Below are positions 1-38,872 of a DNA stretch of 40,001 bases, piece by piece (position 1 is the first letter of the stretch; each line of letters starts with the position of its first letter). Under the pieces are notes generated by a model, which was not told the DNA's origin, did not search any database, and was given only the letters and a program-made list of their open reading frames with translations. This DNA is from Clostridia bacterium. GTDB lineage: Bacteria; Bacillota; Clostridia; Christensenellales; Aristaeellaceae. The position numbers and the translations under genes are program-made. The stretch is taken from the NCBI GenBank assembly GCA_030526225.1, contig JAUNDF010000002.1, positions 5,128 to 45,128 of the forward strand. Direction: 5' to 3'.

Positions 1-98
1 TCGCGACAGCTCCCCCAGAGGGGGAGCCTTTCGGCTTGGCCGACACGATAAAGGCTCTCCCTTTGGGAGAGCTGTCAGCTTTAGCTGACTGAGAGGGT
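1..98. repeat. Structured intergenic repeat (REP/MITE-like), copy cut by the window edge
   Basis: Two GC hairpins, gctccccc-aga-gggggagc (9-27) and gctctccc-ttt-gggagagc (54-72), are followed by ctgtcagctttagctgactgagaggg. The architecture and right end match the element at 9252-9368. Confidence 0.7.
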
Positions 99-152: not shown

Positions 153-1388
153 TTAGTGATGCATGCGGCCCTTGCCGAACAGGCTGCGGCGGCCGCCGTA
201 GGGGGTCATGCTGCCTGCCACCTGCGGGGTCAGGGCAGGGGCGGTCAGGCTGCGGTTCTTGGTAACGTTCAGCACCAGACCCACGCCCAGCATGTTGGTC
301 ATCATGTTGGAGCCGCCGTAGGAAATAAACGGCAGCGGGATGCCGGTAATGGGCATCAGGCCCATGGTCATGCCCATGTTCTCAAACACGTGGAACAGCA
401 GCATGCCCATCACGCCGATAATCACCAGCCGGCCGAACTTGTCGCGGGTGTAGGCGGACAGGTACAGCATCCGCAGGATAATCAGGAAGAAGACAATCAT
501 GATGCCCACACAGCCCACAAAGCCCCATGCCTCGCCGATGGTGGCGAAGATGAAGTCCGTCCAGTCGGCGGGCACGTAGTTCAGCTGGCTGATGGAGCCA
601 TCCACAAACATGCCGATGCCGGTCAGGCCGCCGGAGCCGATGGCTGTCTGGCTCTGCAAAACCTGATACGCGTCGGTGGAGGAATACAATTCGGGGTTGA
701 TGAAGGCCAGAATGCGGGCCAGACGGTAGCTGTCCGCGTTGGTGGCCACGGTAAAGCCGTACAGGGCGGCGATGCCGATGACGGCCACACCGGCCATGCC
801 CATCAGCAGACGGAAGTCCACGTTGGCAAAGAACAGCATCACGGCGAAGAAGAAAATAATCACCAGAACGCTGCCCATTTCGCCGGACATCAGGGTAACA
901 AAGGTGGGGATGGCGACAATCAGCATCACCCGGAAAAACTCCTGCACATTGCCCATGGGCTTTTCCGACTGGGAAAGAACACGGGACAGCATCAGAATCA
1001 TGGCCAGCTTGATGAACTATGACGGCTGCAGCGTCATGCCCCAAATGATGTCCAGCCACGCCTTCACGCCCTCGGCACGGTTCAGCACCCACACAAGGGT
1101 CAGGAAGATGGTGCCGCCCCAGTAGAAGATGGGCGTGTAGCGGCGCAGAAAGTCGTAGGGAATCAGGAGCAGTACGGAAAGCACCACAGGACCCAGCGCC
1201 AGGAATACGCACTGTTTCACCGCGTAGGAGGATTCCACGATGCGGTTGAGCAGTGAGCCTGTGGGGGCCGAGTCCACGGTGTAGGTAGCGACACACACTG
1301 CCAGCACACCGAAGACGGCCAGACTGAATACAAGCAGAATCAGCGGCACGTCCACATGGGCCCGTGAATGTCTGTTTTCAACGATCAA
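153..1388 (-). CDS. rodA: SEDS-family peptidoglycan polymerase RodA/FtsW, with one in-frame TAG at 1017-1019
   Basis: ORFs 1017-1388 and 153-1001 share a frame (1388-1001=387). Read on the minus strand the junction is ...GMTLQPS-TAG-FIKLAMILML. It carries the SEDS motifs QPS(E)F and PFISYGGS. The start is a TTG overlapping the minD TGA (TTGA). The true stop is TAA. Confidence 0.85.
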
Positions 1389-2194
1389 AGCTTGTTGACC
1401 TCCTTGTGCTTGCGGCCAAAGAGCCGGGAGAAGAAGCCGGGCTTGCGCACGCCGTAGGCGGGGAAGGGCTCATCCATGCCCTCCATGCGCGCGGCAATGC
1501 GGGTGAGGGCATAGCGGGCCTCGCAGTCGCACTGCATCAGCGGCTTGTGGTTAATCAGGCTCCGGTATACCACCGGGTCCCGGGGCACCTCGCCCAAAAG
1601 GGGCAGGTCCAGGGTCTGGGATACCACGGCGGCGGAGTACATTTCCCCTGCATCAATCAGCTCGCTGTCCAGCATGTTGACAACAAGGCGCGGGGAGGGC
1701 ATGTCCTTGCCCTGCAGCACGGAGGCGGTGCGCTCCACGTTGCGGATGCACACATCGTCCGGGGTGCTGATGAGGATGGTTTCGTCCGTGTGCTTGTTCA
1801 GCAGCCCGCGAAGGCCGCGCTCGATGCCGGCGGGGCAGTCAATGAGCACATGGTCAAAGCTGAGCTTCAGCTGGCCAATCAGCTTCATAAATGCCTTTTT
1901 GTCCAGATCCTTGCTGCGGGCAAACTGGGCGGCGGGGACGAGGAACAGGTTGGTGTAATCGCCGTGGCGAATCAGGGCCTAATCCATGCGGCAGCGCTTT
2001 TCCAGCACATCCAGCAAATCGTAGACCACCCGGTTTTCCACGCCCAGAATCACATCCTGATCGCGCAGGCCGATATCGGCATCCACAATGCAGCAGCGGC
2101 AGCCCCGCTGGCTGAGCGCGGCGCCCAGCGCGGCCGTTACGGTGGATTTGCCAACGCCGCCCTTGCCGGATGCAATGATCCATGCTTTGCCCAT
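1385..2194 (-). CDS. minD: Septum site-determining ATPase MinD, with one in-frame TAG at 1979-1981
   Basis: Deviant Walker A SGKGGVGKS, Walker B region LIDCPAG and a C-terminal amphipathic GFFSRLFG are present. ORFs 1979-2194 and 1385-1888 share a frame. The junction ...EKRCRMD-TAG-ALIRHGDYTNLFLVPAAQ... is collinear with B. subtilis MinD EGRCKMHQALVKDKRF. Stop is TGA. Confidence 0.85.
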
Positions 2195-9415: not shown

Positions 9416-11164
9416 TTACTTGCTGTACTTGGGGCGTTCCACATAGTGGGTGTGGAGCAGCTCGTGGGCCTTGTGGCCGTTGGGCTCGCCCAGATAATCG
9501 GCGTACAGGGCCTTGATGGAGGGGTTCTCGTGGCTCTTGCGCAGGGCCTTGCCCTCGTCCTCGCGGTACAGGGCAGCGGCGCGGATCACCTTGGCGTCGC
9601 ATTCCATGCGCTTGCGGGCGGATACGATGGGCTGACCGCCGCCGGTCACGCAGCCGCCGGGGCAGCCCATGACCTCGATGAAGTGATAGGTCTTCTTGCC
9701 GGCGCGGATTTCGTCCAGCAGCTTGGCTGCATTGGCGGTGCCGTGGGCGATGGCTACATTCAGGGTCAGGTCGCCCACCTGAATGGCGGCTTCCTTCACG
9801 CCCTCAATGCCGCGGACCTGCTCGAATTCAACCTTCTCCAGCTCGCTGCCGGTGAGCACCTCGTATGCGGTGCGCAGGGCTGCCTCCATCACGCCGCCGG
9901 TGGTGCCGAAAATAACGGAAGCACCGGTGGATTCGCCCAGCAGGGGATCGAAATCCTCATCGGGCAGGTTGACGAAGTCGATGCCGGCTTCCTTAATCAT
10001 CTTGGCCAGCTCGCGGGTGGTGATGACCTCGTCCACATCCTGCATGCCGTCGTGACCCAGCTCGGGGCGCTTGGCCTCAAACTTCTTGGCGGTGCAGGGC
10101 ATCACGGAAACCACCGCGATGGTCTTGGGGTCGATGCCCATCTTCTCGGCATAGTAGCTCTTGATCATGGCACCGGACATTTCGTGGGGAGACTTGCAGC
10201 TGGACAGGTTGGGGATGAAGTCCTTGTAGTAGGTTTCGCAGAACTTGATCCAGCCGGGGGAGCAGGAGGTAATCATGGGCAATGTGCCGCCGTTCTTGAT
10301 GCGGCCAATCAGCTCGGTGCCTTCCTCCATGATGGTCAGGTCAGCGCCCCAGTCGGTATCAAATACCTTGTCAAAGCCCAGACGGCGCAGGGCAGCGGCC
10401 AGCTTGCCGGTGACCAGGGTACCCATCTCCATGCCGAATTCTTCGCCCAGTGCGGCGCGGACGGCGGGAGCGGGCTGCACCACCACGTGCTTGGCGGGGT
10501 CTGCCAGCAGGTCCCACACAGCCTTGGTGGAGTCCTTTTCATGCAGGGCACCGGTGGGGCAGGCGGCGATACACTGGCCGCAGTTGATGCAGCTCATGTC
10601 CACCAGCGGCATGCCCCAGGGGGATTCGATGGAGGTGTTGAAGCCGCGGTTGACCGGGCCAATCACACCCACAGCCTGGGTCTTGTTGCAGGCGGCCACA
10701 CAGCGGCGGCACAGCACGCACTTGTTGTTGTCGCGCACGATGGAAACGCTCAGGTCGTCCACATCGTACTTGTTCATGGAGCCGGCAAAGCGCTCGCCGT
10801 CTTCCACGCCCAGGTCGAAGCACAGCTGCTGCAGCTCGCACTTCTGGTTGCGGGCGCAGGAGAGGCACTTCTTGTCGTGGTTGGACAGCAGCAGCTCCAG
10901 GTTGATTTTGCGGGCCTCGCGGATGGCGGGGGTGTTGGTTTTCACCACCATGTTGGGCGCAACAGGCAGCACGCAGGCGGCCTGCAGGGCGCGGGCACCG
11001 GTATCAACCACGCACAGACGGCAGGCGCCGATCTGGTTGATGTCCTTGAGGTAACACAGGGTGGGGATATTGATGCCTGCCTTCTTGGCCGCTTCAAGCA
11101 CGGTTGTGCCGGCAGGAACCTCGACGGAAACGCCGTCGATCGTCAGTTTGATCAGCTGATCCAT
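9416..11164 (-). CDS. hydA: [FeFe] hydrogenase catalytic subunit (HydA/HndD type, multi-FeS N-terminus)
   Basis: N-terminal 2Fe-2S, a His-ligated 4Fe-4S and 2 ferredoxin CxxCxxCxxxCP motifs are present. H-cluster motifs are TSCSPGW (L1 variant), MPCTAKKFE and EVMGCPGGCVTGGGQP. I place the start at MDQLIKL (ATG 11164) after GAGGGAGGAAAAG; the upstream part of the track ORF overlaps the previous gene. Confidence 0.9.
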   Translation of the reverse strand: MDQLIKLTIDGVSVEVPAGTTVLEAAKKAGINIPTLCYLKDINQIGACRLCVVDTGARALQAACVLPVAPNMVVKTNTPAIREARKINLELLLSNHDKKCLSCARNQKCELQQLCFDLGVEDGERFAGSMNKYDVDDLSVSIVRDNNKCVLCRRCVAACNKTQAVGVIGPVNRGFNTSIESPWGMPLVDMSCINCGQCIAACPTGALHEKDSTKAVWDLLADPAKHVVVQPAPAVRAALGEEFGMEMGTLVTGKLAAALRRLGFDKVFDTDWGADLTIMEEGTELIGRIKNGGTLPMITSCSPGWIKFCETYYKDFIPNLSSCKSPHEMSGAMIKSYYAEKMGIDPKTIAVVSVMPCTAKKFEAKRPELGHDGMQDVDEVITTRELAKMIKEAGIDFVNLPDEDFDPLLGESTGASVIFGTTGGVMEAALRTAYEVLTGSELEKVEFEQVRGIEGVKEAAIQVGDLTLNVAIAHGTANAAKLLDEIRAGKKTYHFIEVMGCPGGCVTGGGQPIVSARKRMECDAKVIRAAALYREDEGKALRKSHENPSIKALYADYLGEPNGHKAHELLHTHYVERPKYSK

Positions 11165-11186
11165 GTTCTTTTCCTCCCTCGCACGA

Positions 11187-12983
11187 TCAGTTCTTGGAGA
11201 TGGCGCCGAAACGGCACTTCTCAACGCAGGCGCCGCACTTGAGGCACTTGGCGGTGTCAATCACATGCTGATGGCGCACTTCGCCGGAGATGGCACCGGC
11301 GGGGCAGGCCTTGGCGCACAGGGTGCAGCCGCGGCACTTGTCAGAGATGACATAGTTGAGCAGGGCCTGGCAATGGTGGGCCGGGCAGCGCTTTTCCTTG
11401 ATGTGGGCCTCGTACTCATCCCGGAAATAATGCAGGGTGGAGAGCACGGGGTTGGGGGCCGTCTGGCCCAGACCGCACAGTGCGGTGGACTTGATATTCT
11501 GCGCCAGGGTTTCCAGCTTCTCGATGTCGCCTTCCTCGCCCTTGCCGTCCACAATGCGCTCGAGGATTTCCAGCATGCGGCGGGTGCCGATGCGGCAGGG
11601 GGTGCACTTGCCGCAGCTTTCATCCACGGTGAAGTCAAGGAAGAAGCGGGCGATGTCCACCATGCAGTTGTCCTCGTCCATGACAATCATGCCGCCGGAG
11701 CCCATCATGGAGCCGATTTCAATCAGGGTGTCGTATTCAATCGGGATGTCCAGGTGGTCGGCAGGGATGCAGCCGCCGGAGGGACCGCCGGTCTGCACGG
11801 CCTTGAACTTTTTGCCGTTGGGGATGCCGCCGCCGATATCATAAATGATGGTGCGCAGGGGAGTGCCCATGGGGATTTCCACAAGGCCGGTGTTGTTGAT
11901 TTTGCCGCCCAGGGCGAATACCTTGGTGCCCTTGCTGCGCTCGGTGCCGATGGAGGAATACCACTTGGCACCCTTCAGGATAATCTGCGGAATGTTGGCA
12001 TAGGTTTCCACGTTGTTGAGCACGGTGGGCTTGCCGAACAGACCCTTCACAGCGGGGAAGGGAGGACGGGGACGGGGCTCGCCGCGCTTGCCCTCGATGG
12101 AGTTCATCAGTGCGGTTTCCTCGCCGCAGACGAAGGCACCGGCACCCAGACGGATGTGCAGGTCGAAGCAGAAATCGGTGCCGAAGATGTTGTCGCCCAG
12201 CAGGCCGTATTCCTTGGCCTGCTCAATGGCTACCTGCAGGCGCTTGACGGCGATGGGGTACTCGGCACGGACGTAGATGTAGCCCTCGGAGGCACCGATG
12301 GCATAGCCGCCGATGGCCATGGCCTCGATGATGGCATGGGGGTCGCCCTCCAGCAGGGAGCGGTCCATGAAGGCACCGGGGTCGCCCTCGTCAGCGTTGC
12401 AGGCGATGTACTTCTGGTCAGCGGGGCTGTTGTAGCCGAACTGCCACTTCTTGCCCGTGGGGAAGCCGCCGCCGCCGCGGCCGCGAAGACCGGAGTCAAT
12501 CACTTCCTGAATGACCTGCTCGCGGGTCATTTCGGTCAGGGCCTTTGCCAGGGCCTTGTAGCCGTCAAAGGCGATGTATTCGTCGATGTTTTCGGGGTCA
12601 ATCACGCCGCAGTTCTTCAGGGCGATGCGCTCCTGCTGCTTGTAGAAGCCGATTTCGTTCAGGCTCTTCTGCACGCTGGATTCATGGGTGGCATGGTCCA
12701 CATACACCAGACGCTGCACCTTGCGGCCCTTGAGCAGATGCTCGGAGACGATTTCATCCACGTCCTCGGGCTTTACGCGGGAGTAGAAGGTGCCCTCGGG
12801 GTATACAATGACAACGGGGCCGGCCTCGCAAAGGCCGAAGCAGCCGGTGCGGACGACCTTGACTTCCTTGTCCAGGCCCTTTTCCTTCAGCTGTTCATCA
12901 AAGCGCTCGATCAGCTGCATGGAACCGGAAGAGGTACAGCCGGTACCGCCGCAGACCAGCACATGTGCGCGGTAAAAATCCAT
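11187..12983 (-). CDS. hydB: NuoF-like NADH-binding flavoprotein subunit of the hydrogenase (HydB/HndC)
   Basis: 598 aa with an N-terminal thioredoxin-like 2Fe-2S domain, an FMN site GRGGGGFPTG, ESCGKCTPCR and two C-terminal ferredoxin motifs. Confidence 0.9.
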   Translation of the reverse strand: MDFYRAHVLVCGGTGCTSSGSMQLIERFDEQLKEKGLDKEVKVVRTGCFGLCEAGPVVIVYPEGTFYSRVKPEDVDEIVSEHLLKGRKVQRLVYVDHATHESSVQKSLNEIGFYKQQERIALKNCGVIDPENIDEYIAFDGYKALAKALTEMTREQVIQEVIDSGLRGRGGGGFPTGKKWQFGYNSPADQKYIACNADEGDPGAFMDRSLLEGDPHAIIEAMAIGGYAIGASEGYIYVRAEYPIAVKRLQVAIEQAKEYGLLGDNIFGTDFCFDLHIRLGAGAFVCGEETALMNSIEGKRGEPRPRPPFPAVKGLFGKPTVLNNVETYANIPQIILKGAKWYSSIGTERSKGTKVFALGGKINNTGLVEIPMGTPLRTIIYDIGGGIPNGKKFKAVQTGGPSGGCIPADHLDIPIEYDTLIEIGSMMGSGGMIVMDEDNCMVDIARFFLDFTVDESCGKCTPCRIGTRRMLEILERIVDGKGEEGDIEKLETLAQNIKSTALCGLGQTAPNPVLSTLHYFRDEYEAHIKEKRCPAHHCQALLNYVISDKCRGCTLCAKACPAGAISGEVRHQHVIDTAKCLKCGACVEKCRFGAISKN

Positions 12984-13016
12984 AAAGATTTCCTCCTTAA
13001 GAAAATCGTGTGCGTC

Positions 13017-13385
13017 TTATTCGGCAGCGCCGATGGTGTACTCCTCAACGGGATGACCGTTGACCACGTGCTCGGCCACAATGCGGCCTACCATTTCGGG
13101 CGTAACCTTGACATAGGTGACCTTTTCCTGACCGGGCAGATACACATCCACCATGGGCTCCAGGCGGCACATGCCCACGCAGCCGGTCTGGCTGACGGTC
13201 ACATGCTCAAGGCTGCGCTTGGCAATTTCATCCATGAAGGCCAGCATCACAGGGCGGGCGCCGGCGGCAATGCCGCAGGTGGCCATGCCGACCACCACGC
13301 GGGCAGCATCGGCGTTTTCCTTGCGCATGGCGATATTCTCCAGCGTTTTGGCGCGGATGGCTTCCAGTTCAGCAAGTGATTTCAT
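13017..13385 (-). CDS. Thioredoxin-like [2Fe-2S] ferredoxin (HndB-like)
   Basis: About 122 aa with Cys at ATCGIAAG and GCVGMCR. The ATG at 13385 follows AAAGGAG; the TTG at 13391 in the track is less likely. Confidence 0.8.
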   Translation of the reverse strand: MKSLAELEAIRAKTLENIAMRKENADAARVVVGMATCGIAAGARPVMLAFMDEIAKRSLEHVTVSQTGCVGMCRLEPMVDVYLPGQEKVTYVKVTPEMVGRIVAEHVVNGHPVEEYTIGAAE

Positions 13386-13416
13386 AAGCAATTCTCCTTT
13401 ATACAGGCAATCTGAT

Positions 13417-13959
13417 TCAGGTGAAAACAGGGTCGATTTCTTCCTTCAGCGCATCCCGCAGCCATGCGGCAATCTCCGGCTCGTTCAGGGGCAGACCGCC
13501 CAGCACGGCACGGACTTCGCGGGTGTCGAAGGTGCATTCACCCCGGGGCGATTTCCCCTCAAAGCGGAAATCCGGGGCAAGGGGGTTGGTAATCATCAGG
13601 CTCAGCAGTGTGCCGGATAAATCCCCCAAGGGCAGACAGTCGATGCATTTGGTGTTCATGGTTACGGTAAGCGCTGTGCCCACCCCAACCTTGGACGTGA
13701 TGACCAGGTCGCCCTCGGCCAGCCGGGCGTTTTCCAGCATCATGGGGATGCCGAGGCCGACCTTGCGCGTGGTTCTGGTGGTGGCAAAGGGGCTGGTGAC
13801 CCGGCTGAGCAGCTCGGGGTCCATGCCCTTTCCGTTATCCTCCAGCACCATGGTCAGCCAGCCGCTTTCGTCGATGGAAAGGCGGATGACAATCAGTGAC
13901 GCGCCGGCGGATATGCTGTTTTGGGTCAGGTCCAGCAAATGCAGGGACAAATCACGCAT
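13417..13959 (-). CDS. GHKL/histidine-kinase-like ATPase domain protein
   Basis: 180 aa with EDNGKGM and GLGIP (N and G boxes). It is embedded between the hydrogenase subunit genes. Confidence 0.8.
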   Translation of the reverse strand: MRDLSLHLLDLTQNSISAGASLIVIRLSIDESGWLTMVLEDNGKGMDPELLSRVTSPFATTRTTRKVGLGIPMMLENARLAEGDLVITSKVGVGTALTVTMNTKCIDCLPLGDLSGTLLSLMITNPLAPDFRFEGKSPRGECTFDTREVRAVLGGLPLNEPEIAAWLRDALKEEIDPVFT

Positions 13960-13971
13960 GGCAAATCAACC

Positions 13972-14439
13972 TCAGCGATACTTGGCCACAATGGCGGGAA
14001 TCTCGTCGGGGGTCAGGCGGCCGTAAACCTCGTCGTTAATCATCATGACGGGGGCCAGACCGCAGGCACCCAGACAGCGGGTGGCGTTGAGGGTGAAGCG
14101 GCCGTCGGCGGTTGTCTTGCCCACGGGGACCTTCAGCTCCTCGCTCAGCTTGTCCAGCACCTTCTGGGAGCCCTTGACGTAGCAGGCGGTACCGAGGCAT
14201 ACGCCCACGATATACTGGCCCTTGGGCTCCAGAGAGAACTGTGCGTAGAACGTGGCAACGCCGTAAACCTCGGCCAGGGTGGTGCCCAGACCGTCGGCGA
14301 TGATCTGCTGCACATCCATGGGTACATAGCCGAAGATTTCCTGTGCAGCCTGCAGGACGGGCATCAGTGCGCCGGGAACATCCTTATGCTTGGCAATGGC
14401 TTCCTGCAGAAGCGCGTATTTTTCCTTCTGATCAGGCAT
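13972..14439 (-). CDS. hydC: NuoE-like [2Fe-2S] subunit of the hydrogenase (HydC/HndA)
   Basis: 155 aa with CLGTACYVKG and CLGACGLAPVMMIND. Confidence 0.9.
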   Translation of the reverse strand: MPDQKEKYALLQEAIAKHKDVPGALMPVLQAAQEIFGYVPMDVQQIIADGLGTTLAEVYGVATFYAQFSLEPKGQYIVGVCLGTACYVKGSQKVLDKLSEELKVPVGKTTADGRFTLNATRCLGACGLAPVMMINDEVYGRLTPDEIPAIVAKYR

Positions 14440-14632
14440 GATGTAATTACCTCCTTGAATCGGGCGGCTTGACGGATGGATGCCGTCACAGCCTAAATCG
14501 TTTTAATTTTAACATAAATTTGGCAAAAAGGGAAATGGAAAAACACAAAAAATCCGCAATATCAGCAAAAAAATACAAAAAACATAGAAAATCACGAAAA
14601 AATCATACCGGATTACCCAAAAAGAGGAAGAA
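14440..14632 (-). promoter_or_regulatory. AT-rich leader/promoter region for the hydC-hydA structural genes
   Basis: This is the only AT-rich gap in the locus. The minus strand has an extended -10, TGtTAAAAT (forward 14506-14514), with only a weak -35. Phased T-tracts lie upstream (forward A-tracts 14567-14602), and a small hairpin gacgg-atggatg-ccgtc sits at 14471-14487. Confidence 0.3.
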
Positions 14633-15346
14633 TCAGCGGATGATTTCCTTCCCGGAGGCGGCCAGCAGGGTATCGAACAGACCGCCGGCGGAAAACCTGT
14701 CCGTGGGGAAATCGAACACCGCCTATTGAATCTTGCCCAATTGGTGGGCATCGGAGGAATGCAGCACCGCTCTGCCTGCAAGGATTTTCTCATTGATGGG
14801 CAGCTGAGGGGAAACCTCCACCAGCCCGTAGTGCGGCTCATCAGGCATCAGGCCCAGATTGACCAGCAGGCCGTTGCTGCCCCGGTTGATGTGGGCCGGC
14901 ACCGCAATGCCCCCTCTGCGGCGAACCTCTGCGGTGCATTCCTCAAGGGATAAATCCGTGGCGCCGATGAGCATCCTGTCCTCGGTGAAGCGAATGACAT
15001 CATCCGTGTCGCGAACATACTGGGTGCCGAAGAAGTCGGGCATGTTGGGCATATCCGGCAGATGGGAGGAGAAGAATTCCCCGGCATCCACCGCAGCCTC
15101 CACGGTGCGGAAGTACCCCAGCAGGTGCACCTCCTCCCGGGTGGTAATCTCCAGCCCCGGCAGCAGAATCAGCCCGAAATAATCAGCCGCTTCCTTGACA
15201 TAGGGCAGATTGAGGGCGGAGTTGTGGTCGGTGACGGCGATGGCCTGCAGCCCTTTGATGTGAGCCATGCCGCAGATGTTGGCGGGGGTCATGTCCTCAT
15301 CTGCGCAGGGGGACAGGCAGGAGTGAATGTGCAGGTCAACCAGCAA
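14633..15346 (-). CDS. PHP (polymerase/histidinol phosphatase) domain protein; the apparent TAG stop at 14723-14725 is read through to TGA at 14633
   Basis: DLHIHS, VTDHNS and HSSDAH motifs are present. After ...HQLGKIQ-TAG the frame stays open for 29 codons (AVFDFPTDRFSAGGLFDTLLAASGKEIIR) and ends at TGA. Confidence 0.7.
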
Positions 15347-15352
15347 GGCGTG

Positions 15353-15706
15353 TCAGTCCTCTCTGTTGTGCCCGGGCAGCCCTGCGGCGGAGAGCAGCGC
15401 GCACAGCTCGTAGGCGGTCAGGTCGCTTTCCAGCACGGTGATGTCTTCATCGATGGCCTTTTTCAGCGTGGCCTCCTCAATGTGGACCCCCTCGGGCAGG
15501 ATGACGGCAGCCATTTCCATCAGCGCGGCCACGGCAATCACGTTCATGTGGGTCTGGACGGTAATCCACGCCATGCCGGACTGGCCGTGGGCCATGACCC
15601 AGCTGAGCAGGTCGCAGGCATAGCCGCAGGTCACCGGTCGGGATTTGTCGGTATCGGGGGTTACATCCACCGCGCGGGTCAGGGCAGTCAATTCGGCAAT
15701 GGTCAT
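15353..15706 (-). CDS. DRTGG domain protein
   Basis: 117 aa, paralogous in size and position to 17510-17863. A typical companion of HydS-like genes. Confidence 0.7.
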   Translation of the reverse strand: MTIAELTALTRAVDVTPDTDKSRPVTCGYACDLLSWVMAHGQSGMAWITVQTHMNVIAVAALMEMAAVILPEGVHIEEATLKKAIDEDITVLESDLTAYELCALLSAAGLPGHNRED

Positions 15707-15728
15707 GGGGCATCAGTCCTTCCCATCT

Positions 15729-17027
15729 TTACTGTCTCGTATTCTGTGCCAGGGCCACCATTTGCTGGGCCATGGCGCGCAGGTGATCCTTCAGGATGTG
15801 GATGCAGTCCATCTCGCTGGCGTAGCCCCGGACGATATCCTCGGCGAAGGTGCGGCAGGTGGGGGAGCCGCAGGAGCCGCAGTCGTAGCCGGGCAGGCGG
15901 TTGATGGTTTCGTCAATCTGCTCCATTTTCCGCATGGCCTCGATGATGTCGTCGTCCAGCCGCATGGCACCGTTGGGCAGCACCACATCGGGTGCGTGCA
16001 GCTGGATGCCCTCCAGCAGGTTCAGCTCCACCGGCTTTTCCGGCAGCAGGGCCGGGTCGCCTTCAATCAGCCGGCGGACGATATTGCGGGCCACATAGTT
16101 GTTTTCAAAATTCAGCGGACCGCCCACGCAGCCGCCGGTGCAGGCGTTGCCCTCGAAGAAATCAAGGTCGCTGAGCTTGCCGTCCTCAATCTCCTAAAGC
16201 ACACGGATGACGTTCTCAATCCCGTCCACGGACATGCTGCTGCTGTGGCCCACCGCATTGGCCTCGCCGCCGCTGTTGGCCCAGCCCACGCCCAGGGCGC
16301 TGGCGGTGACCAGCGTGTCATCCTCTTCGGCTTGCTTGGTGTGGCTTGAGAGCAGACCGTAGATTTCCAGCACGCTGATGGCCCCGTCCACCGCGGAGGT
16401 GGGATGGCCGATGGGGGAGCGGATGGCGGTCACCTTGGCCGGGCAGGGAGTGATGAAAAAGCAGCCGATGTCCTCCTCCGGCACGCGGTTTTTCCTTGCG
16501 AACGCCCGCTTGGCCATCATGGCGGCAACCTCCATGGGCTGGCGCACATCCACGAGGTTGTCAATCAAATCGGGGAAGCGCACCTGAATCAGCCGCACAA
16601 TGGCCGGGCAGGCGGAGGAAATCAGCGGCTTGGGGCAATCAGGCTCCCGCAGCTTTTCCTGAATGACGCGGGTGACCACATCGGCACCCCGGGCCACCTC
16701 AAACACATCGTCAAAGCCCATTTTCTTCAGCCCCGCCAGCACCGGAGAGATGCTGTGCAGCGTTTTAAACTGCCCATACAGGCTGGGGGCCGGCAGGGCG
16801 ATTTTGTATTTGAAGGCGCTGATGGTGCTCAGCGGGTCCGTTACCGCCACCTTGGCGTGATGGTCGCACACGCGGATGCATTCGCCGCAGTCGATGCACA
16901 GCTCGTCGATGATATGCGCTCTGCCGCCGCGCACGCGGATGGCCTCCGTGGGGCAGCGCTTGAGGCAATTGGTGCAGCCCCTGCATTTATCCGCCAGAAG
17001 CGTGACAGAGTGGAAGCGTTTTTCCAT
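15729..17027 (-). CDS. HydS-like (putative sensory) [FeFe]-hydrogenase-domain protein, with one in-frame TAG at 16194-16196
   Basis: It has two N-terminal ferredoxin motifs. The H-cluster-type motifs are SSACPAIV (Ala at the relay-Cys position), TPCPAKV and ACTGGCVGG. A C-terminal CGSCGSPTC Fe-S domain follows. ORFs 16194-17027 and 15729-16127 share a frame (900 nt apart). The junction reads ...NVIRVL-TAG-EIEDGKLSDLDFFEGNACTGGCVGG. Confidence 0.8.
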
Positions 17028-17064
17028 TTTGGTTCAGTCCCTTTCGGATTTTGGTACAGCGTGG

Positions 17065-17487
17065 TCAATGCAGGGCAAAGCCCATCTCGATGGTGGTGCC
17101 CACCCCCACCTGACTTTCAATAGAGAAGGTGGAGGCGTTGCGCTTCATGTTGGGCAGGCCCATGCCGGCGCCAAAGCCCAGGGCCCGTGCCTGATCGCTG
17201 GCGGTGGAGTAGCCCTCGGTCATGGCCTTGTCAATATCCGGGATGCCCGGGCCCACATCCTTGCTGATGAGGGTAATCATGTCCGGGTCCACCCGAAGGG
17301 TCAGGGTGCCGCCCATGGAGTGGATGACCAGATTCAGCTCCACCTCGTAGCAGGATACGGAGATGTGCCGCAGCACCTCGGCGTTGATGCCCAGCTGCTT
17401 CAGCTTGCGCTTGATGGCCGTGGAGGCCTGACCGGCAGCGGCGAAATCCCCCGCTTCCACATTGAATACCTGTTCCAGAATGGCCAT
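17065..17487 (-). CDS. Anti-sigma-factor-like serine kinase / GHKL ATPase
   Basis: 140 aa with DVGPGIPD and GFGAGMGLPN. Confidence 0.75.
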   Translation of the reverse strand: MAILEQVFNVEAGDFAAAGQASTAIKRKLKQLGINAEVLRHISVSCYEVELNLVIHSMGGTLTLRVDPDMITLISKDVGPGIPDIDKAMTEGYSTASDQARALGFGAGMGLPNMKRNASTFSIESQVGVGTTIEMGFALH

Positions 17488-17509
17488 GGTGATGCTCTCC
17501 TTTCCTGTA

Positions 17510-17863
17510 TCAGTCTGCCTGACGGGAGCCGGGCAGATGGCGCAGGTACAGCTCCCCGCAGGAGGTGTAGGTGGTCATGGGCGTGGAAATCACCGCCAGC
17601 CCTGCCTCCCGGGCAAGGGTCAGCATTTCCTCGCTGGGCTGCTTGCCCCGGCTGAATACAATGCAGACCGCATCCAGCATTTCGGCGGTAATCATCACCT
17701 GGGGATTAATCAGCCCCGTAATCAGCACCGCCTTTTCATGGGCAAAGGCCAGCGCATCGCTCATCAGGTCCGCCCCGCAGGCGCAAAGGACCTCCTCGCC
17801 CAGCATGTCCTCGCCGGCCAGCAGCTTGCCGTGCAAAATCTCTCTGATTTCTCCGATGGTCAT
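17510..17863 (-). CDS. DRTGG domain protein
   Basis: 117 aa with AVLITGLINPQV...IVFSRGKQP...GLAVISTPMTTY. First gene of the regulatory module. Confidence 0.75.
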   Translation of the reverse strand: MTIGEIREILHGKLLAGEDMLGEEVLCACGADLMSDALAFAHEKAVLITGLINPQVMITAEMLDAVCIVFSRGKQPSEEMLTLAREAGLAVISTPMTTYTSCGELYLRHLPGSRQAD

Positions 17864-17930
17864 AAGTGTGCCTCCAAATATATAGAATGTATGTGAATGT
17901 CTGATGGGGAAAAGAACATCTCTTTACAGC

Positions 17931-21999: not shown

Positions 22000-23039
22000 C
22001 AGTTCAGCACCGCCGCTTTCATCCCGCCCCAGCGGGTCGTTTGGGATACCAGCTGCCGCAGCCCCTGCAGCATGGCGGGGGTGGGCTGCTGGGTGAGCAT
22101 GGAGGCCAGCACCTCCTGCATATCACGCATACCAACGCCCTGCTTGGCCAGAATGCGCAAATCCTGCACGGCCTCATCCTCGTTGGTTTCCGGGCGCACG
22201 GCATCCTGAATCAGACCAATCATCTGCAGCGTGGTTTCTGCCTCTTCAGGCAGGATGCCCGCCACGGCGCTGAGCAGCGTCATTTCGTCCATTCTGGGGG
22301 GCAGGCTGCTGCCCATGGCGGCAATGAAGGGCTCCGGCTCCGCAAGGCCCGGGTGCAAAAGAAACCGGCGGCCGTCCATGCGGCAGATAAAGTCACAGCT
22401 GATGTGCAGATACCGCTGGCACAGGCGGATGTCATCGGGGTCATCGGTCTCCATGGCATCCTGCACCAGATGCTCCAGCGCCTCCTCAAAGGGGACCACG
22501 CCGCGTATGTACAGCAGACCCCGCAGCGTCATGTCAAAGCGCATCAGGCGCTCGCGCAGCTCCTTGTGCACGTCATCGAAAATCATCTCGGCCACGGAGG
22601 GCACCAGCTACGGGGACATGCGCAGGAACAGCCGCTCGTCATCAACCCATTCAAGGTAGCACCACAGCCGCCGCACCAGCGACTCGGCAGGGAGGGCATC
22701 CTCCATGTCTGTCAATTCGGCCCGGCCGCCGCCCACAATCAGCTTTTCCAGCAGCAGATGCTCGGGGAGGGTGACCAGCGCCGTTTCCACCGGAAGGTTT
22801 TCGATGACCATATCCCGCAGCATGCTGACGGTATGCAGCCGCCTTTCCCGGGGGAACTCCTGGGCAGCATGGCTGATGGACCACAGCTGCTCGGCGCGGC
22901 TGTCATCCTGTAAAGCGAATAAATCAAAATCCGGCAACCCGGAAAGCCGGCTTTCGCAGGCCTCCAGCTGTCGGAGATGCAGGACAGACATGGTCTTGTC
23001 CGCCCAGTGATCATACCGAACATTGTTTTCCCGAAGCAT
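21999..23039 (-). CDS. Hypothetical protein (346 codons), with one in-frame TAG at 22608-22610
   Basis: ORFs 22608-23039 and 21999-22604 share a frame (435 nt apart). The junction reads ...ERLFLRMSP-TAG-LVPSVAEMIFDD. A strong RBS, AAAGGAGAACAA, precedes the ATG at 23039. There is no RBS or start for the second half. Stop is TGA. Confidence 0.65.
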
Positions 23040-24221: not shown

Positions 24222-24470
24222 GGGATAAAGCCCCTCTCTTGTATCATTTGCGCCCGGTGGGGCGGATAAAAAGCATGGTCGATATGGCCATACACCCATT
24301 ATACAAAGGGGGAATGGGCTGTCAAGGCGATTGGATACAGAAACACATCAGAAAGACAATCCGAAACCGCCGGAGGCAAAACAAGGATTTTGTGCCGCGG
24401 GGGTGGAAATATATCATATTAGGGTATTGTTTATTAATTGTAAGAAATAGATTTGAAGGGGGTCTGCGGC

Positions 24471-26348: not shown

Positions 26349-29300
26349 TGGAGGAAAAGATGACAGCCCGAACCGGGGAGCAGACAGCCGACCGTCTGCT
26401 GCCCTCCTTCAGCATGCTTCCGGTGTGCGATATCCCCGCAGACCAGCCCACGGGTGTGGTGGGCATCGGCCACGGCAGCAGCCGCTGGCTCCGCCGTCTG
26501 GCCGACCGCCTGGGCGGCACCGGCATGACCTATGCGGCCAAAGAAAAGCTGGCCGGGGCCATCCGGGACAAGGGCGAGGCATACACCTGCTGGCGGGGAA
26601 TGCTGGCCATGCTGCTCCTGTGGGATTTGCACCGTGATGCGCCCCAAGCCTTGGAGGCCGTTTGCTGGGACAAGGGCACGCCTTTGGCCGCCATGCTGCT
26701 GGAAGCCTCCGGTCTGCAGGACAGCGCCGCCTTTGGGGAGAAGCTGTGCGTGATGACCCTTCGTCAGGGCGGCAGACAGCTGCCTGTGGCCATTCCCGAC
26801 CGGGAGGCACTGCTGGTGCCCGCCGTGGATGCATCCCTTGACAGCGACGTGATTCCCCCGTGGGTCACATGGTTTGACCGGGATGAGGGCAAAATGCAGG
26901 ACCCCGTGGGGCTGATGAACGAAACGGAGCGGGAGGTGCTGGTCAAGCGGCTGCAGCTGTTCCTGCAGGCGTATGGCGCGGAGGAAAGCGCCCTGTCACA
27001 GGCGGTGCGCCAATTGGCAGAGGACACGGCAAAAATCAACCGCGATGCCAGAGAAGCCCTGTCAGACAGCAAGGGCAGTGCCGTGCAGGAGCTGGCATTG
27101 CGCATTGAGGCCATCCTTGGGCTGAAGGGTCACGAGGCTTTCCCGGGGCTGACCGGCGACAGCGCGGTGATGCAGACCGGCGGCACCAATCCGGTGCTGA
27201 GTGCATTGCACATCCCCCACAGCGCGGACCGCAAGCTGGTGTGCTGCACCACCTACCGCTGGAACGGCGTTCCCTTTGCCCGGGATGCCGAGCGCTTTGT
27301 CTACGAGCCTACGGGCCATGCTGACGAAGCCGCCGCGCTGGATGAACTGAGCCTGGAGCTGGACCTTGCGGCGGAATATATCCCCCACTGGAACGAGCAT
27401 CTGTCCGGGGGGCTCAGCGAGCTGTGGGAAAAGTGCAAGCGCAAAAACCGCCTGTATCCCGCGGTGACCAAAACGGTGTTCCAGCTGTTTGGCCGTGCGG
27501 ACAAGCAGAAGGAAACAAAGCCCGTGGTGCTGAACATTCCCGAGGAACGGGGTCTTGCCGCCGCCGGGTATCTGATGAAAACACTGCTTGGCGATGATGC
27601 GGCCCAGCTGCCCCAGAAGCTGTTCAGCGACCGGCTGACGCTGGTGCCCTTTGCCGCCCTTGCGGATGGTGCGCTGGCACAGGCCGCCTTTGTCCGCTAT
27701 GATGAGGACGGCAGCCCCCTGTGCGCTCTGCCGCCCCTGTCTGCGGCGCTCACCGCCTTTTTGACCGAGCGGGCTCACATCACCCTGCAGCCGGAGGGGC
27801 TGCGCTTCCTGCCTGCCGATGAGGAGGGCAGCCTGTAGGTGCGCCTGATGCTCCGCGGCGCGGGGGAGGTGTCCTTCAGCCGCGTATATCGGGCAGAGGA
27901 TATCATCACCCTGAACCATGACAGCATGCCCACGGTCAGCGTGTGGCCCGGCGTGGCTTTCCCTGAGGGGGACTGGCAGTATTATCTGCTTTAGGCCTTC
28001 CGCGGCGAAGAAGGCATCACCTTCAGCGTGTGGGAAAAGGATGGCTGGGTGCACTGCGCTCAGGGTGCGGAGGAGCGCATTTTCCGTGGGGCAAGGTGCA
28101 GCCGTTATCCCCGATTGATGGCCGTCAGCATGGACGGACTCTCCTTGGGTGCACTGCCCGATACGCCCCCTGTGTGCGATGTGCCCTCCGGCGGCGAAGC
28201 GGCGGCGGGCATCGACTTCGGCTCCTCTGCCGCGGCCACGGCCATCCTGATGGGCGACAGCATGATGAGCATCACCGGGGCAGATTGCCGCCGGGTGCTG
28301 ATGCAGGGCGAATTTGCGCCGGTGCCTGTGCTGGCCCAGCCGGTGATGCCCTCGGCACTGCAGCTGTGCGCCCGTCAGCTGCCCCATCGCCCCCAGCCTA
28401 TGCTGGACAGCCGCATCCCCTCCGAGGCGGATACGCTGGCAGAGGGCGCGGAAAACATCATCGACAACATCCCGTGGCGGGTGGAAAATGACCGGCAGGA
28501 AATGATTCGCCTGTACATGCTCCAGCTGATGCTCACCACGGCGCTGGCCTGCCGCCTTCAGGGTGCCGACCGCATCACGTGGCGCTTTGCCCTGCCCGAC
28601 AGCATGGCTTAGGCCGGCAAGGCATCGCTGATGAACCAGCTGTCCTACCTGACGGATGAACTGGCGGACATGACAGGGCTGCCTGCCCAAAAGGAGCCGC
28701 CGGTGATGGTCCCCGGCTGCCGTGCTCAGATGCTGTACTTCCGCGAGCGCAGGGATGTGAATGTGCGCGGCGGGTGCATCCTGCTGGATGTGGGCAGCAA
28801 CGGTGCCTCCGTGGCCCTGTGGCTTCGGGGCAGGCAGGCCCCTGTGCTGCAGATGGCGCTGCCTCTGGGCGTGGACCTGATGCTGGAAACCATGGCGGAT
28901 GAAAGCCAGATCAGCGCACTGCTGCACCTGCACGGCGCCTTCCTGATGCTCCTTTCCGGCGTGATGGCCCAGAGCGTGTACATGACCTCCTCCGTCAGCC
29001 ATCTGCTGCCGGAAACCATGCCGGTGTGCATGGCGGGACGGGGCGGCTCCTTGCTGCAGCGCATTGACGAAATGGACCGCATCCGCCTGCTGGACTTTAT
29101 GCGCCCGGCCATGGAGGAGACCCATCCCACCGTATCCGCCGGCTATGTGTTCAGCGAATACCCGAAGATGGAAACAGCCGCCGGCCTTGTGCTGTATGCT
29201 CCGGAGCAGGAGGAGGACACCGCCTCTGCCGGCATTGCCATGCGGACCCCGTGGCCGCCGGAGCAGCTGCTGATTGGCTTTATGCGCCTGTTCGGCGTGC

Positions 29301-29910: not shown

Positions 29911-30909
29911 ATGAAAAGATTGTTTGCGGCGGTGCTGGCCATGGTGCTGGCGCTGTCCCTGACCTGTGCCCATGGCGATATCCTCCCCGATACCGCCCCG
30001 CTGGGCCTTTCCTTTGATGTCAACGCCGCGGAATGGGAGCCGGATTTGATGTTCCTCGACTCTGCGGCGGCAGACAAGAGCTATGTGCTGCTGTATGCCA
30101 TGTACATCAACAGCGCCGTGATGGACCCGCTGGCGGATGCCTATTAGCAGGCCTATGAAGCCGGTGACGAGGCCGGGGCAGAAGCGGCCCTGACGGCGTA
30201 CCGGCAGGCACAGACGGCCAATTCCGCTGTGTGCGGCATGCTGGTGGGCTTTGAAAAATCACAGGCGGATGCGCTGAAGGCAGAAATCTTCGGGGATGCC
30301 CAGCTGACAAAGGTGGGCGAAAGCAGCACCCATGTGTACTACAAAATCGTGGCCGAGGAGCCTGACGAAGCCCTTTCCCCGGAGAATCAGGCAGAGATGG
30401 TCAAGGCCATCGCCCTGACAAAGCAGGTCTTCGATGCGGCACAGGTGGTTGAAATCACCGAGGAAAGCTATACCGGCACATCCATCGGCGCCTTCTCCAC
30501 CCGGGATCTGCAGGGCAGTGAGGTGACGGATGACATCTTCGCACAGGCGGATTTGACCGTGCTCAACGTGTGGGCCACCACCTGCCCGCCCTGCATCCGC
30601 GAGATGCCCGAGCTGGAGGCATGGTCCCATGATCTGCCCGAAAATGTACAGGTCATCGGCCTTGTGATTGACGTAAGCGACACCTCCGGCAAGGTGTATG
30701 ACACCGCCATGACCATCATCGGCAAAACCGGCGTCACCTACCGCAACCTGATGATGGACCGCTCCCTGACGGGCTTTGTCAGCGGCATCATCGGCACCCC
30801 CACCACCTTCTTTGTGGATAAGGACGGCCGTCAGGTGTGCGAGCCTGTGGTGGGTGCGTATATGGACATGTACAGGCAGAACGTGACTGACTGGCTTTCC
30901 GGCCGGTAA
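29911..30909 (+). CDS. TlpA/ResA-like thioredoxin-fold lipoprotein, with one in-frame TAG at 30145-30147
   Basis: Signal peptide MKRLFAAVLAMVLALSLTC and active site WATTCPPC. ORFs 29911-30147 and 30229-30909 share a frame (318 nt apart). The junction reads ...DPLADAY-TAG-QAYEAGDEAG. Confidence 0.75.
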
Positions 30910-35047: not shown

Positions 35048-36394
35048 TCAGAACCGGACGGTAATGGCGGTGCCCTTGCCCTCTTCGCTCTCCAGCTTGA
35101 TGTCGGCGCTGTGGATTTCGGCAATGTGCTTGACGATGCTCAGGCCCAGACCGGTGCCGCCGGTTTCCCGGGAGCGGCTCTTGTCCACCCGGTAGAAGCG
35201 CTCGAACACGCGGCTTTGCTGCTCCTTCGGGATGCCGATGCCGCTGTCGGATACGGTGAGGATGGCGTGGCTGTTCTCCGAGGAGACCTTCACCCGCACC
35301 CAGCCGCCGTCACGGTTGTAGCGGATGGCGTTCTGCAGCAGGTTCTCCAGAAGCTCCTTCAGCTGTTCGCGGTCGCCGGTGAGCATGGTATCCGTGCCGA
35401 TGCAGCTGATGGTGATGTTCCTTTGAGCGGCGGTGATACGCAGGGTGCGCACACAGTCCAGCGCCAGCTTGTACAGGTTCAGGTGCTCGAATTTGTGGGG
35501 CAGCTACTGATGGTCCAGCTCGCTGAGGCGGATGATGTCGTTGATCAGGCTCAGCAGACGGTCGGCATTTTGGTGAATCTGCCCGGCGATTCTGCCGGAC
35601 TGGTCCGGGGGCACCATGCCCGCTTCAATCAGCTCTGCATAGCCGGAAATGGCGGTGAGGGGCGTTTTCAGCTCGTGGGAGATGTTGGCGGTAAAATCCT
35701 GCCGGCTTTTGACGGAGGACAGCAGCTTGTCGTGCTGGCTGCGGATTTTATCCGCAAAGGGCTCCAGCTCCCGGTATTCCATGGGGTCGATGTGGTCCAG
35801 ATGCTCGGCCATCTTGTTGATGGGGCGGATGAGCTGCACCGTCAGCAGATGACCGATGACGATGCACAGCCCCATGATGACGGCCAGAATCACCACCATC
35901 ACCGGCAGGGCGGAAAGCATCACGCTGATGATGGACCGTGCCTCGGTGGATACGCGCAGAACCGTGCTGTCCGGCAGGAGCAGCGCGTAATAGAAGGTGG
36001 ACATGTTCTGCGTGGAGGAGGTGCGGGTGCTTTCACCAGTGCCCTGCGCCAGGGCAGCGGTGATTTCCGGGCGGTCCAGGTGGTTGCCCAGGGCATCGGC
36101 GTTGGTATCGTTGTCATACAGCACACGGCCGTCATGATCCACCCAGGTGATGCGCAGACCGTCCACATGCATGGCAGCCATGGGGGACAGGTCGATGGCG
36201 TCCGGGTTGCCGCCGGCCTTTTCGTAGGCGGTCTGGAAAATCCCCGTGCCGGAAAGCATCCGGGCGTTGGTGGCAAGGTCCATGCGGACCCGGCCCACGA
36301 AAATGTTGTAGTACACAAAGGTCAGGGCGGCGGTGGTGGCCAAAATGGCAATCAGCGCAATCAGCCCCAGCCGCAGGTTGATTTTCTGCTTCAT
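35048..36394 (-). CDS. PhoR-like sensor histidine kinase, with one in-frame TAG at 35504-35506
   Basis: It has two TM segments, the H-box SHELKTPLTAI, the N box LLQNAIRYN, and G boxes DSGIGIP and GGTGLGLSI. ORFs 35504-36394 and 35048-35452 share a frame (942 nt apart). The junction reads ...LSELDHQ-TAG-LPHKFEHLNLYKLALD. Confidence 0.8.
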
Positions 36395-37093: not shown

Positions 37094-38872
37094 TCATCCG
37101 TTCTGCACCGGCAGGGTATAATGCCGGCGGCACTTCTTATATTCTTCGGCAAACCAGGGGGCTTCTCCTTTTACGGCGGTGTATTTGTGGGTGCCGAATT
37201 CGTCATGGGCGGTTTCAATCAGGCACACGGCCACATTGGAGCAGTGGTCGGATACGCGCTCGTGGTCGGTGATGATGTCCTCCAGCACAAGGCCTGCCTC
37301 CATGGAGCAGCGGCCGGTGCGAAGGCGGGCGATGTGGCGCTGCTTCATTTCGTCCCGCAGGTCATCCACCACCTGTTCCAGCGGCTATACGCTCCTGGCC
37401 AGCAGGGTGTCCCCGTCGGCAAACACGGTGACGGTCAAATCAAGAATGTCCGACACGGCGCGGCCGAAGGCGGTCAGCTCGTCCATGGCATCATCCGACA
37501 GGGTGATGCCCTTCTCCCGCAGCTCCCGGGCGGATTCCACCATGTTCATCGCGTGGTCGGAGATGCGCTCGAAATCGGAGATGGAGTGCAGCAGCTGGCT
37601 GAGCAGCTTGCTGTCCTCCAGCGCCAGATCGTGGCCGGAAAGCTTGACCAGATAGCTGCCCAATGCATCCTCATAGCGGTCGCACAGCTTTTCCATGGCC
37701 AGCACCTCACCGGCCTTTGCTTCATCAAACCTGTACAGCACCTGCATGCCCGTGCGGAAGGCCTTGCGGGCGGTATCCGCCATTTCATCCGCGGCATTTT
37801 TGCACAGGCGGATGGCGAAGGAGGGCTGGTCGAGGAAGCGCTCGTCCAATGCGGCCAGCACGGCAGGCTGCTGCACGGCGGGCTTTGCATCGCCCTTGTC
37901 GGGGATGGTCTTCTCCGCCATCTTCACCAGCAGATTGCCGAAGGGGAACAGAATCAGGGTGCAGCCGACATTGAACACGGTGTGCATCAGGGCGATGCCT
38001 GCCGCGCCCACGGCTTCATCCAGGAAGGGCATGGGGACAAACAGCTTCGCGCCGTAGAAGCCGGCCATAAACAGCACCGAGCCGATGACGTTGTAATACA
38101 GGTGAATCATGGCGGCGCGCCGGGCATTTTTGCTGGCACCGGCCGAGGAAAGAATGGCGGTGACGCAGGTGCCGATGTTCTGCCCCAGAATGATGGGCAG
38201 CGCCGTGCCCCAGGTAACCATGCCGGTCATGCACAATGCCTGCAGAATACCCACCGAGGCAGAGGAGGACTGAATCACGGCCGTGAGCACTGCACCGGCC
38301 AGCACGCCCAGAATGGGGTTGGAGAAGGCTGTGAGCAGGCCGGTGAAGTTGGGGTCATCCTTCAGGGGAGAGACAGCGCCGGACATGGTTTCCATGCCGG
38401 TCATCAGCACCGTGAAGCCGAGGAAGATGGTGCCGACAGTCTTCTTTTTGCTGCCCTCTTTGGCGGTCATCAGCAGAATGATGCCGATCAGCGCCAGCAC
38501 AGGGGAGAAGGAGGAGGGCTTCAGCAGCCGGATGAAAATGTTGGTGCCGGAGATGCCTGCCAGGGACAGAATCCAGCTGGTCACCGTGGTGCCGATGTTG
38601 GCGCCCATGATGATGCCTACCGCCTGCCCCAGCTTCATGATGCCGGCGTTGACAAAGCCCACCACCATCACCGTGGTGGCAGAGGAGGACTGAATCACCG
38701 CCGTGACCACCATGCCCAGCAGCAGGGCGGCAAAGCGGTTTTTCGTCAGCTTTTCAAGAATTTTCTCCAGCCGTCCGCCGGAGAGCTGGACCAGACCGTC
38801 GCCCATCACCTTCATGCCGTACAGGAACAGGGCAAGGCCGCCTGCCATGGTCAAAACATGGAAAATATCCAT
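37094..38872 (-). CDS. Na/Pi cotransporter family protein with C-terminal PhoU-like repeats, with one in-frame TAG at 37385-37387
   Basis: It carries GANIGTTVTSW and GQNIGTCVTA, then PhoU-like FERISDH and ERVSDHCSN. ORFs 37385-38872 and 37094-37372 share a frame (1500 nt apart). The junction reads ...TLLARSV-TAG-PLEQVVDDLRDEMK. Confidence 0.8.

Follow-up and report, generated by a model that had tools for sequence, protein, structure and literature searches.

Sequence evidence for a probable reading of UAG as glutamate in rodA and other genes of a Clostridia bacterium

The rodA gene and the codon of its motif glutamate

The DNA considered here is a stretch of 40,001 nucleotides (hereafter the window) from contig JAUNDF010000002.1 in assembly GCA_030526225.1 of a Clostridia bacterium, and the question it raises is the meaning of the codon TAG within its genes. 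Close to the beginning of the window, on the minus strand at 153..1388, lies rodA, a gene of 411 codons whose product can be recognized as a SEDS peptidoglycan glycosyltransferase from the Pfam family PF01098, from its relatives, and from its operon context. The gene opens with a TTG (1388-1386) and closes with a TAA (155-153). Between them, at 1017..1019 on the minus strand, codon 124 is an in-frame TAG that falls on the Glu of the QPSE motif, the counterpart of Glu114 in Escherichia coli RodA. The first-pass annotation of this sequence had read the minus strand at this point (1031-1002) as ctg cag ccg tca TAG ttc atc aag ctg gcc, or LQPS-TAG-FIKLA, and this is indeed what the window contains. 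It had also held that a stop here would divide the enzyme into pieces of 123 and 282 amino acids; both sizes are correct, the TAG being codon 124 and the 282-amino-acid product having been seen in another assembly.

The gene keeps the ancestral mreB-mreC-mreD-pbp2-minD-rodA context, with mreB, mreC, an mreD homolog, pbp2, and minD located upstream. The TTG start overlaps the TGA stop of minD (TTGA, 1385-1388), without a minE gene between minD and rodA, and this overlap suggests translational coupling of the two genes. On the other side, 80 nucleotides past the rodA stop, a terminator-like hairpin (GCTCTCCC-AAA-GGGAGAGC) at 54..72 on the minus strand is followed by a T-rich tail.

Homology runs across the TAG without interruption. 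PF01098 (FTSW_RODA_SPOVE) matches rodA with an E-value of 3.3e-78 in a single stretch that spans the TAG, covering residues 44-406 of the stop-to-stop open reading frame (ORF) and profile positions 4-354 of 356. In phmmer alignments against chains of the PDB, the TAG pairs with the E of 'fqpsEiaki' in E. coli RodA (8tj3_B) and with the E of 'fqplElakl' in Thermus thermophilus RodA (6bar); the former alignment, to FQPSEIAKI of 8TJ3, bears out the earlier proposal that the codon replaces the conserved Glu of the SEDS motif. Read from the TTG, the protein begins MIVENRHSRAHVD, which matches the relatives' consensus MIxENRRxRAHVD, and the motif's partner Lys in QPS(E)xxK is kept three residues past the TAG. 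The features expected of a SEDS protein—a full-length PF01098 match, the QPSE..K motif, and a Rod-complex gene context—are thus all found, with the motif Glu represented by the TAG codon. In E. coli RodA, Glu114 and Lys117 are highly conserved and lie between two substrate cavities (PMC10449877). The equivalent SpoVE mutants, E116A and K119N, severely impair sporulation, while the effect on RodA in vitro is modest (PMC10449877).

The column occupied by the TAG is invariant wherever it was sampled. Among the best 120 database matches, all 119 full-length homologs have Glu; the 120th is the window's own 282-amino-acid fragment and was left out. The relatives' loci, 80 of which come from GTDB species representatives, likewise give Glu in 84 of 84, encoded by GAG in 52, by GAA in 32, and by TAG in none. 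The demand for a Glu-like residue, put forward by the first-pass annotation, is therefore upheld by both samples, and by four further TAGs on Glu columns described below. Its suggestion that the codon arose from GAG in one substitution is plausible, as 52 of the 84 relatives have GAG, and only plausible, because the closest relative (72% identity without gaps, from a Hadza gut metagenome-assembled genome) has GAA at this codon.

Signs of decay are not seen in rodA, which carries neither a further stop nor a frameshift; the part ahead of the TAG is 70.7% identical to the nearest relative, and the part that follows it 74.4%. A standard-code gene caller did yield a 282-amino-acid rodA piece (P0008), from another assembly, that starts at the first ATG after the TAG. 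We considered whether rodA might function as a split gene and rejected this arrangement: the piece would be without the motif Glu and the invariant Lys and Leu, and its ATG is without a ribosome-binding site. On these comparisons, it is likely that rodA encodes a full-length RodA of 411 amino acids with the usual QPSE glutamate, under a code in which UAG specifies Glu.

In-frame TAG codons across the window and the residue they specify

The rodA codon is one of 11 in-frame TAGs, which affect nine intact genes, lie on both strands, and extend from 1 kb to 37 kb; read with TAG as a sense codon, the window contains about 35 genes. Next to rodA, minD (minus strand, 1385..2194; 269 amino acids, with an ATG at 2194 after AGGAGG and a TGA stop) has a TAG at 1979..1981 on the minus strand, in the context RMD-TAG-ALIRH, and its Pfam ParA/CbiA match spans residues 20-249, the TAG included. 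Further minus-strand TAGs occur in a PHP-domain protein of a hydrogenase cluster (14723..14725, 30 codons ahead of the TGA stop), in a HydS-like [FeFe]-hydrogenase-domain protein (16194..16196, VIRVL-TAG-EIEDGKL, spanned by the Pfam match Fe_hyd_lg_C), and in a conserved 346-amino-acid protein with no Pfam match (22608..22610). On the plus strand, a 1050-amino-acid protein, also without a Pfam match, has three (27836..27838, 27992..27994, and 28610..28612), and a thioredoxin-fold (Redoxin/AhpC-TSA) lipoprotein has one in its N-terminal region (30145..30147), downstream of which the reading frame and the Pfam domain carry on. The remaining two are again on the minus strand: one in a histidine kinase, between HisKA and HATPase_c (35504..35506, SELDHQ-TAG-LPHKFE), and one in a Na/Pi cotransporter-PhoU protein (37385..37387, ARSV-TAG-PLEQVVDD). 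Together these make up 11 of approximately 836 putative Glu codons in the window.

These genes are interrupted by TAG and by nothing else. Neither TAA nor TGA occurs in frame among the 12,513 codons of the window's genes; random nonsense hits would be 57% TAG, so that the probability of 11 out of 11 being TAG is approximately 0.002. Pfam domains span the TAGs or resume after them. The stretches on either side of each TAG show the same identity to relatives, with at most 1-5 gap positions per alignment and no frameshift; in the histidine kinase, for example, identity to the nearest relative is 62.6% before the TAG and 76.8% after it.

Homologs for the sites outside rodA were drawn from two chimeric queries, one full HMMER scan of representatives, and the relatives' contigs. 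The second chimeric query, a word-based search with the poorly conserved genes and the PHP gene, gave three matches; the HMMER scan recovered the families, with variable columns. No homolog covers the site in the thioredoxin-fold lipoprotein, leaving 10 assessable sites. Every TAG that stands at a conserved column falls on Glu: besides rodA, the HydS-like protein (83 of 83 homologs), the Na/Pi-PhoU protein (21 of 21 orthologs, motif VEPLEEVVD), the histidine kinase (16 of 16 homologs), and the PHP protein, for which the single relative available (in locus L088, SDAHQLGAIM-E-ADFDFDTPRF) also has Glu. In this last case homology runs 21 residues beyond the TAG, and the codon is therefore not that gene's real stop. 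PDB alignments place Asp at the TAG column of the hydrogenase-domain protein, which is compatible with Glu. Those for the PhoU site, with I and A at the column, were set aside in favor of close homologs, as the structures' sequences are too distant.

The other assessable columns are variable. At the minD site the 84 relatives have Q in 64, R in 5, D in 5, S in 4, E in 4, N in 1, and T in 1, the codon being mostly CAG. Glu is the commonest residue (22 of 89) at the site in the 346-amino-acid protein. In the 1050-amino-acid protein, the first site is occupied by R (16), T (10), E (6), and Q (5), with E and D in the two closest homologs; the third by A (10), P (8), E (7), L (7), and D (5), with D in the two closest homologs; and the second, which is gap-prone, by Y (21), S (6), and F (5), and is uninformative.

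Taken over the 10 sites, the summed log-likelihood is -16.0 for Glu, -45.0 for Ser, and -46.0 for Gln, an advantage for Glu of about 29 nats over the next residue and 30 over Gln. If one codon were picked at random from each of the four proteins with the best sampling, the joint chance that all would land on columns with at least 95% Glu is 6e-7. As a control, the column method was applied to every codon of 10 genes: well-sampled codons recovered their standard meaning (GAG and GAA as Glu, CAG as Gln), and TAG was assigned to Glu by 26.7 nats. Judged by these alignments, purifying selection acts on the UAG positions as it would on codons for Glu. In the same ten genes ATA and CGA are very rare, with 3 and 2 aligned columns and differences of 0.1 and 1.4 nats, and cannot be assigned; this most likely reflects just the low counts. 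Reassignments of CGG have been reported in other Clostridia.

The minD site bears most directly on the idea that TAG encodes glutamine, as in the phage code 15, or a mixture of Glu and Gln. Its TAG aligns to Gln (CAG) in 64 of 84 relatives, CAG to TAG is a single transition, and Gln is reportedly the usual result of amber reassignment in phages (PMC9523058). This reading would nevertheless have to place Gln instead of Glu at four all-Glu columns in four unrelated proteins, and it lies 30 nats below Glu overall; the minD column is itself variable and already takes Glu (4) and Asp (5). The chromosomal housekeeping context is also not that of a phage-type code 15. We regard glutamine, alone or mixed with Glu, as very unlikely.

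A different kind of objection is that the TAGs may mark pseudogenes in a decaying genome, or errors of sequencing or assembly such as G-to-T damage. The NCBI pipeline evidently took the genes as broken or truncated: the NCBI protein MDO4482970.1 (Q4C54_00635) comprises the N-terminal 496 amino acids of the 1050-amino-acid protein and stops precisely at its first TAG; the rodA pieces in the database come from the Logan source only, with none from NCBI. The data also derive from a single sample. Set against this, three Logan contigs (run SRR24915835) are 100% identical to the window at 118-2923, 23548-32035, and 35563-38680—14.4 kb together, taking in 8 of the 11 TAGs—so that the contigs of two assembly pipelines agree. 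TAG is the sole type of lesion, whereas G-to-T changes in GAA or GGA would yield TAA and TGA as well. Conservation is equal on both sides of the TAGs, the sites are concentrated on Glu columns to the degree given above, and several core functions would have been hit at once. Decay or error is, in our judgment, highly improbable as an account of these codons.

It is also conceivable that TAG is read genome-wide as pyrrolysine or another nonstandard residue, as proposed for some archaea. Column-based methods are blind to a 22nd amino acid, and some Clostridia carry pyl genes. A code in which every TAG is pyrrolysine has been put forward in archaea (10.1101/2024.09.30.615893). A bulky lysine derivative in place of an all-Glu acidic residue in four or five proteins is hard to square with function, and neither pyl genes nor methylamine methyltransferases occur within the window. 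Nor do the 11 sites share a sequence context or a downstream sequence or structure element, save that no A directly follows the TAG, and this speaks against recoding that depends on context, as for selenocysteine or pyrrolysine. A pyrrolysine code consequently seems barely credible here. With Glu as the residue, what was seen at the rodA codon is, on this comparative evidence, probably a genome-wide property, and nothing special to rodA.

Several of the TAG-containing genes belong to neighborhoods with features of their own. A complete [FeFe] hydrogenase cluster of the electron-bifurcating type occupies 9416-17923 on the minus strand, with HydA-like (614 amino acids), NuoF-like (609 amino acids), and NuoE-like genes and genes for small HATPase and DRTGG proteins; it adjoins the HydS-like sensory hydrogenase-domain protein and the PHP phosphoesterase, the order is kept in L088, and two of the genes have a TAG. 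The gene for the 346-amino-acid protein (21999-23039, minus strand) overlaps the end of an RluA-type pseudouridine synthase gene (21142-22122). Many full-length homologs of about 345 amino acids are present in the representative library and, with no Pfam match, this protein appears to constitute an undescribed conserved family. On the plus strand at 24444-29500, the 1050-amino-acid protein stands next to one of 634 amino acids that also has no Pfam match, in a region where local G+C content (0.63-0.64) is above that found elsewhere. The larger protein's family ranges from about 980 to 1770 amino acids and, together with that of the 346-amino-acid protein, numbers 117 representatives at E<=1e-30; it carries the motifs GIDFGSS and LLDVGSNG, which we take to be reminiscent of actin/Hsp70-like ATPases. 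Adjacent Na/Pi cotransporter-PhoU paralogs (36926-38932 and 39336-40001, minus strand) lie beside a PhoR/PhoB-like two-component system, an arrangement that is the same in L089; the first paralog alone has a TAG, and the second runs off the window.

Two other loci are of note. Between the genes for the large unknown proteins and that for the thioredoxin-fold lipoprotein, a 112-amino-acid ORF at 29551-29889 (plus strand) resembles serine resolvases in their N-terminal catalytic domain (PF00239) only and may be what is left of a mobile element. At 32548-34062 (minus strand), a 504-amino-acid protein combines GNAT acetyltransferase, ASCH, and chloramphenicol-acetyltransferase-like domains in an unusual three-domain fusion.

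Termination and the proposed decoding of UAG

Among the 34 window genes with a stop codon, 20 end in TGA, 14 in TAA, and none in TAG. In the relatives' loci (L002-L089), TAG accounts for 66 of 1011 stops, or 6.5%, by ORF-based gene calls, and true TAG stops there include those of rodA in L058 and L065. Giving up TAG termination would be cheap in a lineage whose ancestral use of it was this low. Uncultured Clostridia from the guts of humans and ruminants, some of them labeled Aristaeellaceae or Christensenellales, are the nearest relatives. In the seven genes shared with 80 relatives' genomes, each a GTDB species, we found no internal TAG; among these 80 species and the nearest relatives, the reassignment is seen in one organism only, and is not shared by the clade. 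The absence of internal TAG from the 80 relatives suggests that the change is confined, as far as is visible, to this long branch.

There is good reason to think, from the convergence of conserved columns and intact frames, that UAG is translated as Glu in this Clostridia bacterium, and a genome-wide reassignment of UAG to Glu in a divergent Clostridia lineage is the reading that best fits the alignments. Several points weigh against it. The absence of TAG from 34 stops agrees with reassignment but is weak evidence when taken alone, because relatives seldom end genes in TAG: at their 6.5% usage, its probability is approximately 0.1. The argument for Glu is one of sequence comparison throughout; a single sample supplied all of the sequence, and the two assemblies were probably built from one set of reads. 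The nearest relative found, with GTDB species representatives included, is only 72% identical (in RodA), so that there is no TAG/GAG polymorphism within a clade to look at. The minD TAG stands where 76% of relatives have Gln, and the second TAG in the 1050-amino-acid protein stands on a Tyr-rich column. The majority codons at these two sites, CAG for Gln and TAY for Tyr, are one step from TAG, which fits the appearance of new TAGs by single mutations at tolerant positions. Finally, the decoding machinery proposed below is deduced, as a tRNA with the anticodon CUA, prfA (encoding release factor 1, RF1), and glutamyl-tRNA synthetase (GluRS) would all be encoded outside the window, in which ARAGORN and Rfam detected no tRNA genes or Rfam elements. 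For this reason our confidence in any specific machinery is lower than in UAG as Glu.

Some of these same points leave room for partial amber suppression, in which a Glu-inserting suppressor tRNA would act while RF1 stays active and TAG still ends some genes, giving an ambiguous or transitional code. The decoding machinery would lie outside the window, the lack of TAG among 34 stops is only weakly significant at the relatives' usage, and the small share of TAG among putative Glu codons is what would be expected had the change been recent or costly. Of the alternatives to full reassignment, partial suppression by a lineage that keeps RF1 is the chief one left, and we consider it unlikely: the TAGs stand at conserved, important positions of rodA and minD and affect 9 of about 35 genes, inefficient read-through would truncate much of the proteome, and no gene in the window requires a TAG stop.

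If UAG has been fully reassigned to Glu, known stop-codon reassignments offer a model for how it would be decoded. GluRS would attach Glu to a tRNA whose anticodon is CUA, RF1 would be lost, disabled, or weakened, and release factor 2 (RF2) alone would serve the remaining stops, TGA and TAA. A single G-to-T substitution, then synonymous, would turn GAG into a new TAG, and tolerant sites would also gain TAG from other codons one step away, such as CAG in minD. Many Clostridia are without glutaminyl-tRNA synthetase (GlnRS) and use a non-discriminating GluRS together with GatCAB. This GlnRS-less route offers a plausible path to a Glu-charged CUA tRNA, and we tentatively suggest, as a doubtful but specific proposal, that UAG came to specify Glu by way of the indirect glutamine pathway that is typical of Clostridia, with loss of RF1. 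The CUA tRNA could be a descendant of tRNA-Glu or a tRNA-Gln(CUG) altered by one change; a non-discriminating GluRS, tolerant at anticodon position 36, would attach Glu to it; and it would escape the GatCAB amidotransferase, while RF1 was lost. Were this so, lineages without GlnRS would be predisposed to UAG as Glu, and sites of the Gln type, the minD TAG among them, could mirror that history or a residual dual decoding.

Relation to known genetic codes and significance

The reassignment proposed here has its closest counterpart among eukaryotes. In the peritrich nuclear code, NCBI table 30, UAG specifies Glu. In the ciliate Oligohymenophorea sp. PL0344, UAA specifies Lys and UAG specifies Glu (PMC10553269). 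The codon and the amino acid are the same as those proposed for the Clostridia bacterium, and the ciliate codes were likewise deduced from in-frame UAG at conserved Glu columns. They belong, however, to eukaryotic nuclear genomes, with eRF1 and cytosolic tRNAs, in contrast to a bacterium with RF1 and RF2; and only UAG is affected here, while UAA still terminates (14 of 34 stops).

Closer in setting are the phages of code 15: TAG as Gln is described for crAss-like and other gut phages (PMC9523058; 10.1101/2021.08.26.457843). There, as here, the amber codon has become a sense codon in gut-associated prokaryotic elements, and standard-code gene callers split the genes. These are phage genomes, often with only the late genes recoded, and the residue is Gln; the window, by contrast, is bacterial chromosome, with housekeeping operons syntenic with those of relatives, and the residue appears to be Glu.

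Among bacteria, the known stop-codon reassignments concern UGA, which is read as Trp in table 4 (Mycoplasmatales and some symbionts) and as Gly in table 25 (Gracilibacteria/Absconditabacteria). These are natural, genome-wide changes from stop to sense, as the one proposed here would be, and were accompanied by loss of RF2 and a new tRNA. The present case differs in the stop codon concerned and hence in the release factor, RF1. It differs also in genomic character: UGA-recoded lineages are AT-rich or reduced, whereas the window has 60% G+C and ordinary metabolic genes.

The predicted end state has been reached by engineering. E. coli strains without RF1, in which UAG has been freed, include those of the C321.deltaA type and the 'Ochre' strain (PMC11903333). 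In such cells RF2 terminates at UAA and UGA and a suppressor tRNA reads UAG, as would be the case here. The engineered strains are man-made, every TAG having been removed first; the present change would be natural, from an ancestor in which TAG made up approximately 6.5% of stops. For the protein itself, the comparison with the RodA of the E. coli RodA-PBP2 complex (8TJ3) and that of T. thermophilus (6BAR) reveals a full-length family match and a conserved motif Lys, and the rodA of the window differs from known RodA only in the codon for the motif Glu.

An earlier reassignment of UAG in a bacterium was not found in the searchable literature, in which only UGA is listed among the reassigned stop codons. 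A preprint of May 2026 explicitly gives only UGA among reassigned bacterial stop codons, and the text of a 2026 screen of approximately 2.7 million assemblies contains no bacterial TAG change. Within the literature searched, UAG would thus apparently be a new reassigned codon for bacteria, and UAG-Glu a new codon-amino acid pair for prokaryotes.

If the reading of UAG as Glu is true, it would define a new bacterial translation table, and would do so from a gut Clostridia lineage of free-living type with 60% G+C. It would imply that RF1-dependent termination is dispensable in nature, as it is in engineered E. coli, and it would represent a natural Glu-inserting amber suppressor system. The consequences may extend to the description of such organisms. 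Standard annotation breaks approximately one quarter of this organism's genes—the 496-amino-acid NCBI fragment of the 1050-amino-acid protein and the rodA split by Logan are examples—and with gene calls broken in this way, estimates of genome quality, pseudogene content, and metabolic capacity for such genomes would be wrong.

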